A stretch of 64,000 nucleotides of DNA from Patescibacteria group bacterium (GTDB lineage: Bacteria > Patescibacteriota > Minisyncoccia > Minisyncoccales > Staskawiczbacteraceae). Positions 5,530 through 53,956 of the stretch are shown here, one piece after another. The notes below the pieces were generated by a model. It saw nothing but the letters and a program-made list of their open reading frames with translations, made no database searches and was not told where the DNA came from. A program made the translations under genes and the position numbers. How positions within the stretch are numbered: the stretch's first letter is position 1; every line of letters starts with the position of its first letter. The stretch is taken from positions 29,537-93,536 of the forward strand of contig JAHJTG010000016.1 in the NCBI GenBank assembly GCA_018829965.1, in the 5' to 3' direction.

Positions 5530-5588
5530 ACAATTTATTAAATGAGTTTGGAGAAATTAGTGAGGTCGGGACCTCACTAATAATTTTT

Positions 5589-5780
5589 AACTGTTAAACG
5601 AGGCAATAAGTTTAAAAGTAAATTTCGCAGGCAATTTAGCATGGTTTCGTCGATTGGCGACCGCAACACCCGGTGTTGTCGCAACACCGGGTGTTGCGGA
5701 GTGTGTTGCGGAGTAAATTTAAATAGCCCTGAGACGCTGGACGAAGGGACTATCGGTACTTTTAAACTCGTTGCCGAACG
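5589..5780 (-). repeat. F1 long-hairpin element (CGCTCGG...CCTCGCT superfamily), copy a
   Basis: Plus strand aactgttaaacgagg-[ggcaataagtttaaaagta ... tacttttaaactcgttgcc]-gaacg. Ends 1 nt from the rlmE stop. Interior holds nested GC palindromes (gcaacacccggtgttg x2). Confidence 0.85.
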
Positions 5781-6377
5781 CTATTGTCGAGTAAATTTTT
5801 TCGCCACAATGTAAAACTCCTTACTGTGTTTTATAACTGCCATAGGCCTGACTCTTTTTAAAACCTCAAAGTGTTTTTCTACCTCTTTCACAAATTCATC
5901 TACGCATTCCCCTTCAAAGATTTTAGATATGAAACTTCCGCCTCTTCTTAACACAATCTTTGCTATTTCAAATGCTTTTTCAGAAAGTTCTAAAGACTTT
6001 CCCACATCAGACCATATTACTCCGGTAGTCTTTGGAGCCAAATCAGCAACTAATGCATCGCACTTTCCTTGCCATGCTTTCAAATCATCTTCTGTTATTT
6101 CTAAAATATCTTTTTTAATAAAAGAGATATTGTTCCTCGGAGGTATTTTAATATCCTCAATATCAATGCCCAATACCCTGCCCTTCGGACCAACCGTATC
6201 TGAAATATATATTATCCAAGAACCCGGAGCGCAACCTAAATCTAAAACCACGTCATTTTTCCTAATGACTCTGAGTTTATCATTTATTTCTTTCAGCTTA
6301 TAGACTGACCTTGCGGGATAACCCTCTTTTTTTGCTTTGCGAGTATAGAACTCGCGTTTTTTATCTTTGCGGTACAC
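5781..6377 (-). CDS. rlmE: 23S rRNA 2'-O-ribose methyltransferase RlmE/FtsJ (present ORF starts with GTG at a repeat junction)
   Basis: ARSVYKLKEIN and DLGCAPGSW SAM motif, plus the DxxxK-type FtsJ core. The first codon GTG straddles the left end of MITE F3a. Confidence 0.88.
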   Translation of the reverse strand: MYRKDKKREFYTRKAKKEGYPARSVYKLKEINDKLRVIRKNDVVLDLGCAPGSWIIYISDTVGPKGRVLGIDIEDIKIPPRNNISFIKKDILEITEDDLKAWQGKCDALVADLAPKTTGVIWSDVGKSLELSEKAFEIAKIVLRRGGSFISKIFEGECVDEFVKEVEKHFEVLKRVRPMAVIKHSKEFYIVAKKFTRQ

Positions 6378-6506
6378 CCCGTTAGAAGTCCTTGACGAAA
6401 AAATTTATAAATAAATTTTTTCTATCAACAGAACAAAACATTAATTTAATAAACATTTGATTACCATATTAGTTGTTTGCTTTAATAAAAACAGACTTCT
6501 AACGTG
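6377..6506. mobile_element. F3 MITE copy a (TIR CCCCGTTAGAAGTC / GACTTCTAACGTG, TSD GTACA)
   Basis: 13-14 bp terminal inverted repeats. Identical 5-bp GTACA at 6372-6376 and 6507-6511. Interior related to copy c. Confidence 0.85.
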
Positions 6507-6526
6507 GTACATATTTGTATTATAAC

Positions 6527-6556
6527 AAAAAAAACCCGCTATAGACGGGCTTTTTA
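6527..6556 (-). terminator. putative rho-independent terminator after rplU
   Basis: Minus strand: aaaaaGCCCGtctatagCGGGTtttttttt. Short GC stem plus an 8-T run. Confidence 0.5.
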
Positions 6557-6562
6557 GAGAAT

Positions 6563-6877
6563 CTACTCTGCCTCTATCTTTAATATCTCTACTTCGGTAT
6601 AGGGCTGTCTGTGCCCCATCTTTTTATGAAAACGTTTCTTAGCCTTGTATTTATATATGGTAATCTTATCTCCCTTCCCCTGCTTTAAAATTTTTCCTAC
6701 AACCTTGGCTCCTTTTACTAAAGGAGTACCGATTTCTACTTTCTTGTTTCTTTCCAATAATAAAACTTCGGAAAAAATAATTTCCTCCCCTTCTTTTTTC
6801 TCTATTTTCTCAATCTTTAATTTTTCTTCGGGGGAAACAATATATTGCTTCCCACCGGTTTTTATTACTGCCAACAT
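6563..6877 (-). CDS. rplU: 50S ribosomal protein L21
   Basis: MLAVIKTGGKQYIV... and C-terminal GHRQPYTEV, typical of L21. Confidence 0.95.
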   Translation of the reverse strand: MLAVIKTGGKQYIVSPEEKLKIEKIEKKEGEEIIFSEVLLLERNKKVEIGTPLVKGAKVVGKILKQGKGDKITIYKYKAKKRFHKKMGHRQPYTEVEILKIEAE

Positions 6878-6894
6878 AAGTATTTTTGTTTTTT

Positions 6895-7043
6895 AACTGT
6901 TAAGCGAGGCAGTAGTTATAAAAGTGCCCCTCGCAGGCGATTTTGCATGGTTCCGCCTCGTGGCGGAAAAATCGCCGAGAGTGGAGATGACCAAACCTCG
7001 CAGGGGTTTGGATTATCGCCACTTTTATGGCTACTACCGAGCG
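6895..7043 (-). repeat. F1 long-hairpin element, copy b
   Basis: aactgttaagcgagg-[ggcagtagttataaaagtg ... cacttttatggctactacc]-gagcg. Ends 1 nt before the rmuC stop. Confidence 0.85.
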
Positions 7044-26940: not shown

Positions 26941-26981
26941 ACGAATAATTTTTAAATAATTTCTTAATGGCTCAAATTTTA

Positions 26982-27201
26982 AACTGTTAAGTGAGGCGAC
27001 GAGTTTAAAAGTAAATTTCGCAGGCTCAATCTTTCAGTTAAGCGAGGCAATAATGTATGCGGGTGCACTTCGGAGCCAAGCTGTAAATGAGGACTCGGAA
27101 TAATATTGCCTACGTGCTTGGCGAGAAATAGGCGCGGCGGAGGAATAAATCTATTTTGGCTTAAGCCGACGCCGTGCTCCCGCATATATTATTGCCGAGT
27201 G
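26982..27201 (-). repeat. F1 composite: truncated arm of copy-a type plus a full copy nearly identical to copy e
   Basis: aactgttaagtgaggcgacgagtttaaaagtaaatttcgcagg (compare 5589-5630), then agttaagcgagg-[ggcaataatgtatgcggg ... cccgcatatattattgcc]-gagtg. About 100 nt match 44305-44425. Confidence 0.85.
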
Positions 27202-34390: not shown

Positions 34391-34420
34391 AAAAAAAACC
34401 GCTCGCAAGCGGTTTTTTCT
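34391..34420. terminator. bidirectional rho-independent terminator
   Basis: aaaaaaaaCCGCTcgcaAGCGGtttttt. Confidence 0.75.
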
Positions 34421-34427
34421 TTTTCTA

Positions 34428-34566
34428 AACTGTTAAGCGAGGAAAGTAATTTCTTTTACGATTCGGAGCGAATTGGATTGGTGTCGCCTTAGGCGACCAA
34501 TTCGCGAGTAGTAGCAAATTTTTCGCTGGAAAAAATTCGCGTGTAAAAGAAATTACTTTCCGAGCG
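34428..34566 (-). repeat. F1 long-hairpin element, copy d
   Basis: aactgttaagcgagg-[ggaaagtaatttcttttac ... gtaaaagaaattactttcc]-gagcg. Perfect 19-bp outer stem. Abuts the rplL stop. Confidence 0.88.
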
Positions 34567-46082: not shown

Positions 46083-46186
46083 CTCCGTTAGAAGTTTGCG
46101 ATTGTATAAATTAATGGCAAAATTCCAACTGGAATTTTGCCATTAATTTTTTATAATTATTTTTGCAGTGGCAAACTTCTAACGGG
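46083..46186. mobile_element. F3 MITE copy b
   Basis: TIR ctccgttagaagtttgc / gcaaacttctaacgggg (15 bp perfect core). Flanks gcaag / gtaag (4 of 5). The interior is itself a hairpin (aattaatggcaaaattcca...tggaattttgccattaatt). Confidence 0.8.
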
Positions 46187-46251
46187 GTAAGTTTTATAGC
46201 CCAAATAATATGATATAATAAGAAAATATTATTTTCTAAAAAGATAATACG

Positions 46252-53822: not shown

Positions 53823-53951
53823 CCTCGTTAGAAATTTTTGACGAAAAATATTTTTTCAAAATATTTTTCTCGCACTCGTAAAAAATGACCTCTAATAATC
53901 TACTTTATTTCTACAAACGGCCTTATTTTAGGCAGGCAAACTTCTAACGGG
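53823..53951. mobile_element. F3 MITE copy c (TSD GTAAA)
   Basis: TIR cctcgttagaaattt / gcaaacttctaacggg. Identical GTAAA at 53818-53822 and 53952-53956. Left interior matches copy a (ttgacgaaaaa). Confidence 0.85.
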
Positions 53952-53956
53952 GTAAA

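Follow-up and report, generated by a model that had tools for sequence, protein, structure and literature searches.

A MITE at the first codons of rlmE

The window analysed here, a 64,000-nucleotide stretch of a low-GC (34%) Patescibacteria contig (JAHJTG010000016.1, positions 29,537 to 93,536), carries a transposable element of the miniature inverted-repeat kind (MITE) inserted at the first codons of rlmE, a gene of the 23S rRNA Um2552 2'-O-methyltransferase family. All coordinates below are those of the window, and all features of the rlmE locus lie on its minus strand unless stated otherwise. The gene order on that strand is Na/Ca exchanger, rmuC, rplU and rlmE, a synteny shared with the closest relatives. 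The open reading frame (ORF) directly upstream of rlmE, rplU (6563–6877), encodes ribosomal protein L21, the syntenic genes in the related loci L001–L003 carrying PF00829. 3' of rplU there follow an intrinsic terminator (6529–6555) that was found by a terminator scan and whose hairpin is near-identical in L001 and L002, the extended -10 element TGtTATAAT (6519–6527, with TATAAT at 6524–6519), six bases, an ATG (6510–6512), the bases TA, the 131-bp element (6377–6507) and, finally, the body of rlmE (TGTACCGCAAAGAT).

On the gene strand the junction reads ...tgTTATAATacaaat ATG TA / CCACGTTAGAAGTC...element...GACTTCTAACGGGG / TG TAC CGC AAA GAT, where the slashes mark the ends of the element. 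The element is bracketed by a perfect 4-bp target-site duplication (TSD), with the left copy, TGTA (TACA on the plus strand), at 6508–6511 and the right copy, TGTA, at 6373–6376; the TG of the old, ancestral start codon ATG lies inside the left copy. The terminal inverted repeat has a promoter-proximal arm, CCACGTTAGAAGTC (6494–6507), and a gene-proximal arm, GACTTCTAACGGGG (6377–6390); taken as 6376–6390 and 6494–6508, the arms are 15 nt long and 93% complementary, with one mismatch. The last G of the gene-proximal arm is the first base of a new GTG (6377–6375), the TG of which comes from the target duplication. This GTG, 135 nt from the old ATG, is where rlmE now starts (5781–6377, 198 aa), and the protein sequence (MYRKD...) is unchanged.

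Two short upstream ORFs (uORFs) run through the element. uORF1 (6441–6512, 23 codons, MYHVRSLFLLKQTTNMVIKCLLN) opens at the old ATG, reads the promoter-proximal arm as H-V-R-S and stops at a UAA overlapping an AUG (UAAUG) that is in the frame of uORF2. uORF2 (6382–6456, 24 codons), in which this internal AUG stands at 6441–6439, ends at the UAA of the gene-proximal arm (6384–6382), 4 nt before the GTG. A perfect A/T palindrome within the element (GAAAAAATTTAT / ATAAATTTTTTC, 6397–6422) is also found in related elements of other genomes.

The element has the size of a MITE, 131 bp overlapped only by ORFs of 22–24 codons, as well as terminal inverted repeats, a 4-bp TSD, dispersed copies (three in the window) and empty orthologous sites. 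The repeat core occurs four times in the window at ≤2 mismatches, against 0.10 occurrences expected by chance. Of the other two elements with the same inverted repeats, one (46083–46187, 105 bp) lies in a divergent intergenic region away from start codons and the other (53823–53952, 130 bp), which has the duplication TAAA, occupies the gap that separates a terminator from the promoter after it. The insertion at rlmE is thereby confirmed as real. An earlier note, made from the sequence alone, had called it a MITE-type insertion; it had also described the element as separating the -10 box and ATG from the body of rlmE, the junction of element and target as making the GTG, and the old ATG as opening a 23-codon ORF that stops within the MITE, all of which can be seen in the sequence. 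Two of its positions need correcting: the old ATG is at 6512–6510 and not at 6511–6513, one base off, and the rlmE frame begins 135 nt rather than 130 nt downstream.

Element-free orthologues point to a leaderless-type ancestral rlmE

When the element and one repeat copy are removed, the window sequence becomes TATAAT-acaaat-ATG-TAC-CGC-AAA-GAT. The earlier note had arrived at this reconstruction by removing 'GTACA', a string that takes in the arm's last G besides TACA but leads to an identical result, and the empty orthologous loci agree with it. All nine uninterrupted rlmE loci without the element start ATG-TAY-CGN; these are L001–L003, whose RlmE proteins are 86%, 85% and 75% identical to that of the window, and the six more distant L124–L129. 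The N-terminus MYRKD is conserved among RlmE relatives. L001 and L002 read TATAAT-N8-ATG-TAT-CG and have a terminator hairpin that matches that of the window almost base for base; L124, L126 and L127 have TGnTAnnnT or TAAGAT, then 6 nt, then ATG; L003 has no -10 box before rlmE. Altogether a -10-like hexamer is found some 6–8 nt 5' of the ATG in six or seven of the nine orthologues, and the check in sister genomes which the earlier note had proposed has thus brought no refutation.

Because the element-free orthologues share the start, the N-terminus and, mostly, the -10 hexamer, we take this arrangement of -10 box and ATG to be ancestral. The rebuilt gene (TGtTATAAT-6 nt-ATG) has its -10 box within 5–9 nt of the start and lacks a Shine–Dalgarno (SD) motif, and the comparison supports a rebuilt junction of the leaderless type, in which the ancestral rlmE would have had its -10 box only a few nucleotides 5' of the ATG.

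The element belongs to a widespread Patescibacteria family

We searched the GTDB species representatives with the pattern CGTTAGAAGT-N77..107-ACTTCTAACG and obtained at least 120 matching stretches, nearly all of them from Patescibacteria and in some genomes several per genome. Among the many lineages with matches are Saccharibacteria, Paceibacterota, Kaiser-, Nealson-, Staskawicz-, Nomura-, Zambryski-, Falkow-, Komeili- and Jorgensenbacteria, and Kazan. From the matches listed we extracted 125 non-redundant elements of 103–134 bp, a sample that required exact 10-mers at both ends and is no unbiased census. The ends are constant (YCCCGTTAGAAGT...ACTTCTAACGGGR) and the interiors highly diverse, forming many small clusters; the window element is a C..G-ended member of this YCCCGTTAGAAGT inverted-repeat superfamily.

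At the gathering score, Rfam 15 recognised four tRNAs in the window and no family for the element, and at permissive E-values over 6300–6600 the best match stayed below threshold at 26 bits against a cut-off of 47. A blastn search of the element against plasmids gave no match. No published description of the family was found in the literature on Patescibacteria MITEs, on leaderless genes of the Candidate Phyla Radiation (CPR), on the repeat sequence or on start-codon MITEs, and within the literature searched the family appears to be undescribed. We considered and rejected an IS200/IS605-type reading, since the flanks are true variable duplications, and an integron attC-type reading, since the order of the core is wrong for attC.

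Some individual matches are of interest in their own right. L021 carries two identical elements 700 bp apart (543–672 and 1247–1376), with the same TAAA duplication and similar flanks, which could represent a local duplication or a longer composite unit, and L086 (6018–6148), from another Staskawiczbacteria genome, has a close relative of these elements with the same left flank. The matches in L042 and L067 sit on contigs binned as Pirellulales and Gammaproteobacteria, which are probably mis-binned CPR contigs.

Most sampled elements regenerate the start codon of the gene that they enter

For 71 of the 125 sampled elements, an ORF of 60 codons or more begins at the junction itself, with an ATG or GTG composed of the element's final base and the two flanking bases next to it. 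Seven further elements have the duplication TATG, with the whole ATG inside it, and two more candidates are truncated where the locus ends; start-codon occupancy is at least 78/125 (at least 62%). The reconstructed target is A^TG(A/G)A (^, insertion point), with no other conserved position. Elements ending T..A regenerate ATG and stand at starts in 49 of 55 cases, while C..G-ended elements, the type of the window copy, regenerate GTG and do so in 28 of 66. The junction GTG of rlmE is no product of chance: it is a systematic trait of a widespread family whose terminal base regenerates ATG or GTG. The 4-bp flanks are identical in 48 of the 71 start-codon copies and in many more of the other copies.

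In the same loci, 249 TGRA sites coincide with called starts and 3420, of which 888 follow an A, fall outside any ORF of 80 codons or more, an 'intergenic' class that also takes in unannotated short genes. Start codons thus make up a small fraction of the non-coding TGRA sites on offer, yet they hold at least 78 of the 125 sampled elements and 49 of the 55 that end T..A. This accumulation may stem from active targeting by the transposase or from the preferential persistence of those copies whose deletion would kill a gene.

A Pfam scan of 30 downstream ORFs gave matches for 29, and where N-terminal domains were matched, the matches begin within about the first 16 residues. The genes that carry start-codon copies include topA (in three genomes), dnaB, alaS, gltX, rplD, ftsK and smc, and further clpB, PBP1, ychF, parB, XerC/D, PilB and PilC. 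Judged by these protein matches, the ORFs at junction starts have real N-termini and the genes can hardly be silent. Since the start-codon configuration occurs on dnaB, alaS, gltX, topA and rplD, it must allow expression.

A second class of 11 elements (9% of the sample) has the duplication TTGA, and nine of these read TTGAC[AGT]. A -10-like hexamer follows 16–18 nt on in seven, compared with 9% for all TTGA sites. The copies of this class lie on -35 boxes, which they restore. Insertions in a canonical TTGACA-N17-TATAAT context are seen in L016, L041, L052, L095, L098, L101, L108, L112, L114 and L118, and a few copies lie on TATA^CT -10 boxes (L012, L026, L044 and L067). Promoters, in the form of open complexes, were rejected as the sole targeting cue, because a leaderless-type -10 box is present in only a third of the targeted genes and because many copies sit within operons. 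The idea that TAAA-flanked copies mark stop codons was dropped, as the window copy at 53823 does not fit it.

The regenerated start is maintained and some native -10 boxes are kept

SD-like motifs precede just 2 of the 54 window genes with an ATG start and 54 of 594 genes in the related loci. By contrast, -10-like hexamers peak sharply 6 nt before the ATG (44 of the 594 related-locus genes, with a background of about 4–15 per position), and 16 of the 54 window genes (~30%) have such a hexamer 5–9 nt before the ATG, a pattern which suggests widespread leaderless or SD-independent initiation in the window organism. The earlier note had found no obvious ribosome-binding site before the GTG of rlmE. 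There is indeed no SD motif, but given the rarity of SD-like motifs in these genomes its absence is uninformative.

Among the 71 junction cases the left, old copy of the start codon is intact in 48; in 5 others it is altered within the duplication, and in 18 it has been lost or has shifted. The right RTG is present in all 71 by construction. Because the left copy decays while the right RTG heads a conserved protein, we take the right copy to be the selected start. A -10 box lies 5–9 nt before the old ATG in 26 of the 78 targeted genes as compared with 98 of 594 (p = 0.0009), twice the background, and in L047 TATAAT has been kept though the old ATG is now ACG. Within the 78 start-codon copies, -10-like hexamers read outward are equally frequent at the gene-proximal and the distal end of the element (31 vs 29). 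On these counts we rejected an outward promoter as a general element property, and the promoter inside the MITE which the earlier note had offered as one option is unsupported as a general feature. Since the old -10 boxes are kept and none is enriched gene-proximally, we infer that read-through from the native promoter is the best general reading.

In part of the family, open frames lead up to the regenerated start

The old ATG is always in a stop-free frame through the 5' arm (M-x-P-V-R-S, or M-Y-H-V-R-S in the window), and the 3' arm always has a UAA four bases before the regenerated start (ACUUC-UAA-CGGG-RUG); where the duplication is of the TGA type, a further frame finishes in RUGA. Fifty-three elements have an intact old ATG, and in 13 of them, representing at least nine unrelated subfamilies, a uORF spans the whole element up to the UAA of the arm, as compared with 3.0 ± 1.6 (maximum 7 in 500) when the interiors are shuffled. 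If an AUG within 6 nt of each stop is allowed to take over, the resulting relay of ORFs reaches the RTG in 19 of the 53 elements, among them the window copy, as against 7.9 ± 2.4 in the shuffles. The uORFs are also longer in the observed than in the flipped orientation (Wilcoxon p = 0.007). In one subfamily, 'comp 2' (L005 748–867, L036, L060, L068 and L100), a 39-codon ORF, M-x-PVRS...ESEAQASYF*, is open in all five copies with an intact old ATG, and its mid-peptide is not conserved. Because the frame is open while the peptide interior varies in this subfamily, selection would be for translation rather than for the product.

For the leader RNA of the window copy, folding predicts a structure of -47.3 kcal/mol (z = -5.9) whose repeat stem takes in the GUG at its base. 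To free the GUG this stem has to be opened, and a ribosome at work on uORF1 would do so. The stop of uORF2, 4 nt before the GTG, and the stop of uORF1, which overlaps an AUG in the uORF2 frame, have the geometry of termination and reinitiation and make this a case of putative coupling.

Polarity of the elements relative to the gene

In 25 of the 49 T..A-ended start-codon copies a hairpin of at least 6 bp is found just inside the gene-proximal arm, and in one beside the distal arm. The gene-proximal hairpins keep their pairing through 19 different stem sequences, such as GGAAATC/GATTTCC, GAGAATC/GATTCTC and GGAAGCG/CGCTTCC. A covarying tetraloop hairpin of 6–7 bp, GGAAnnC-NNAA-GnnTTCC, is exemplified by L007 (2735–2854), L036 (2972–3091) and L085 (6713–6834). 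The gene-proximal hairpin could be a site for the transposase on one end of the element or, lying about 14 nt ahead of the start, could act as a signal in the RNA.

RlmE is full length

The RlmE protein of the window is a 100% match to NCBI MBU2540034.1, 'RlmE family RNA methyltransferase', and PF01728 is found in its homologues. It is full length and aligns to E. coli FtsJ (1EIZ) over residues 21–192, the whole domain, and the KDKE tetrad and the S-adenosylmethionine (SAM) motifs are present as read by eye from this alignment. Unique substitutions are no commoner on the window branch than in sister lineages (6 v 14; 8 v 9), a comparison of low power if the insertion is recent. Exact-protein look-ups with the window RlmE, P0001 and P0121 returned no contig on record, and a metagenome scan with RlmE found relatives of ≤72% identity only and no conspecific site, filled or empty.

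Other short repeats in the window

The intergenic DNA of the window is crowded with further families of short repeats and palindromes. A different repeat family flanks rlmE and rplU (5584–5790 and 6890–7030) and is also seen at about 26977–27052 and 34407–34446. Its copies, ~140–200 bp long, have inverted ends of their own (AACTGTTAAACGAGGCAATAAGTTTAAAAGTA) and share 63–78% identity, and one of them ends 15 nt before the rplU ATG. ATTCTGAC.GAGCGATTAA.TATATAG repeats occur near 16.7, 19.8, 23.3 and 41.2 kb, ACATTCTCACATTCTCGAGAATGTGAGAATGT palindromes at 20.4–22.4 kb immediately 5' of gene starts, and TTCGTAATTCG palindromes at 45.1 and 45.6 kb; tandem arrays of the TTTAGGATTTAGAATTT type are present as well.

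Discussion

In this study we have analysed a MITE insertion that moved the start codon of rlmE away from its promoter in a Patescibacteria genome. We judge the insertion most likely to be compatible with rlmE expression and put a probability of roughly 0.6 on the following reading: this is a typical insertion of a start-codon-associated Patescibacteria MITE superfamily, and RlmE is still made through read-through and reinitiation. The MITE inserted into A^TGTA at the first codons of a leaderless-type rlmE, the TSD moving TG to the far side. Transcription would start at the native -10 box and read across the element, and ribosomes would begin translation at the old AUG near the 5' end, from which the 5' repeat arm is read in an open frame (M-x-P/H-V-R-S). 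Translation of the short element ORFs would melt the repeat hairpin that pairs the start codon; ribosomes would then terminate at the conserved UAA that the 3' arm carries 4 nt ahead of the regenerated start, and would reinitiate at that start. For the window copy this would take the form of a two-step relay, from uORF1 (6512–6441) through the UAAUG overlap into uORF2 and on to UAA (6384–6382)-CGGG-GUG. Reinitiation was one of three options raised in the earlier note, and it is the one that fits best, with comparative support that extends to a quarter to a third of the family.

Several points weigh against this reading, in addition to the way in which the elements were sampled and the composition of the 'intergenic' class of TGRA sites. 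Both transcription through the element and reinitiation are inferred from sequence. An uninterrupted translation path is present in only 25–36% of the elements with an intact old ATG, and coupling therefore cannot be the universal mechanism; in some copies the old ATG has decayed, which rules out coupling from that codon. No autonomous copy bearing a transposase came to light in ~1 Mb of fetched loci, where repeat pairs spaced as in an insertion sequence (IS) were at chance level. Within the subfamily of the window element, the orientation relative to the gene is 17:2, a bias caused either by orientation-specific insertion or by selection of one orientation. As the window copy is in the minority, it may be less well tolerated than most, and it could be both poorly tolerated and recent. 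Finally, by analogy with E. coli, in which RlmE is dispensable, a reduced expression of rlmE may be tolerable.

These last points lead to the possibility that the insertion silenced or crippled rlmE, leaving a young pseudogene that has not yet been damaged. The insertion has put 135 nt between the ORF and the promoter with its old ATG, the GTG start has no SD motif and is paired at the base of a -47 kcal/mol hairpin, the perfect TSD and the single arm mismatch are consistent with a recent event, the orientation is that of the minority in the subfamily, and RlmE is non-essential in E. coli. However, the ORF is full length with its K-D-K-E and SAM motifs, there is no excess of unique substitutions (6 v 14; 8 v 9), genes of these genomes generally lack an SD motif, and the same configuration on dnaB, alaS, gltX, topA and rplD in other genomes is compatible with expression. 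With essential genes elsewhere in the same situation and no decay in rlmE, the silencing that the earlier note had considered is improbable. Expression could instead start inside the element, at TATAAA (6409–6404), 26 nt before the GTG; the leader would be ~20 nt long, with AAGGA (6393–6389) as a weak SD at 11-nt spacing, and the old promoter and ATG would be irrelevant. A transcript of this kind, without the 5' arm, would leave the start codon unpaired, and the supply of outward promoters by MITEs and IS elements is a familiar phenomenon. What speaks against it is that the promoter scan found no two-hexamer promoter there, that -10-like hexamers are as frequent at the distal ends of the 78 copies as at the gene-proximal ones, that native -10 boxes are kept 5' of the old ATGs and that SD motifs are hardly used in this genome; we regard such an internal promoter as quite unlikely.

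Processing of the mRNA is a further alternative, in which RNase III would cut the repeat hairpin and RNase J would trim the product to a short-leader or leaderless mRNA near the RTG, the uORFs having no role. RNase III is documented to process the hairpins of Correia MITEs in Neisseria, although it normally cuts inside a stem and not at its base. The base of the 13–15 bp repeat stem abuts the start codon, and processing would account for the copies whose old ATG has decayed, yet it leaves the excess of open frames through the elements unexplained. CPR genomes retain both enzymes, encoded by rnc and rnj (PMC12641178). We think processing unlikely as a replacement for read-through and reinitiation, with which it is not mutually exclusive and to which it may be a plausible complement. 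Lastly, the element might have been misplaced at a repeat during metagenome assembly, given that the genome is a metagenome-assembled genome rich in short repeats and that no second assembly of the same strain was retrieved. The perfect 4-bp duplication and the same exact geometry in more than 70 independent assemblies of other genomes argue strongly against this, and a chimeric join would not recreate an in-register start together with an intact N-terminus; the probability of such an artefact is negligible.

On the level of the family, we tentatively propose, with rather less confidence than an even chance would imply, that the elements home to start codons and secondarily to -35 and -10 hexamers, and that the repeats carry a terminal purine for rebuilding the start codon, an open 5' frame and a 3' stop positioned for reinitiation, which together make the insertion harmless, to which one subfamily adds the gene-adjacent covarying hairpin. 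A candidate source of the transposase is the IS1380 family, which in the ISfinder family table has ends that begin with CC and target duplications of 4–5 bp.

Several known systems share features with the family described here. Like the Correia elements (CREE/NEMIS) of Neisseria, the family consists of ~100–150 bp MITEs with terminal repeats that are gene-adjacent, probably co-transcribed and predicted to form mRNA hairpins affecting expression. For Correia elements, promoter creation is documented in addition to processing by RNase III. However, Correia elements have a TA duplication and unrelated 26-bp repeats, are confined to one genus and are not reported to occupy or regenerate start codons, while the repeats described here, which differ in sequence and have a 4-bp duplication, are common to a radiation on the scale of a phylum and most copies overlap a start codon; the window element is not a Correia element. 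Rickettsia palindromic elements are likewise short, palindromic and tolerated within essential genes of reduced genomes, but their insertions are in frame and become a translated segment of the protein, whereas the present element, with the start codon rebuilt beyond it, does not enter the mature ORF. In gene 60 of phage T4 and in the 'byp' elements found in mitochondria of Magnusiomyces, too, an insert between matching short repeats (take-off and landing codons) is neutralised in translation and not removed from the DNA. Those inserts are 27–55 nt long and are hopped over by the elongating ribosome; here 100–135 nt lie at the initiation codon, and the evidence points to termination and reinitiation rather than hopping.

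Overlapping or closely spaced stop and start codons without an SD motif are the classical geometry of translational coupling, and the UAA 4 nt before RUG and the UAAUG and RUGA overlaps, again with no SD, reproduce it. The difference is that the stop comes from a mobile repeat and that the upstream 'cistron' is a meaningless peptide encoded by the element. The nucleotide-precise landing on a landmark of expression recalls yeast Ty3 at Pol III start sites. Ty3 is a eukaryotic retroelement guided by transcription factors, and for the family described here, unlike Ty3, survivorship bias stays an alternative to targeting.

Taken by itself, rlmE is a neat, reconstructible insertion, and its value is as an entry point to a family-wide pattern. 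For annotation, the GTG starts and short upstream ORFs at such junctions are to be read as made by the element. The element may be a mobile 5' regulatory module that is now used by the host. If targeting is the correct explanation, this would be a bacterial DNA element aimed at translation starts, to our knowledge undescribed; if survival is, the family would show deletion bias shaping where mobile DNA persists in streamlined genomes. Should the proposed homing be true, it would amount to a new 'safe haven' strategy of selfish elements in compact, SD-poor genomes. The family would offer hundreds of natural 'experiments' in which leaderless or SD-less starts were moved 100–135 nt behind a strong hairpin and still work, and translation initiation in CPR bacteria, a largely unstudied subject, becomes directly testable.

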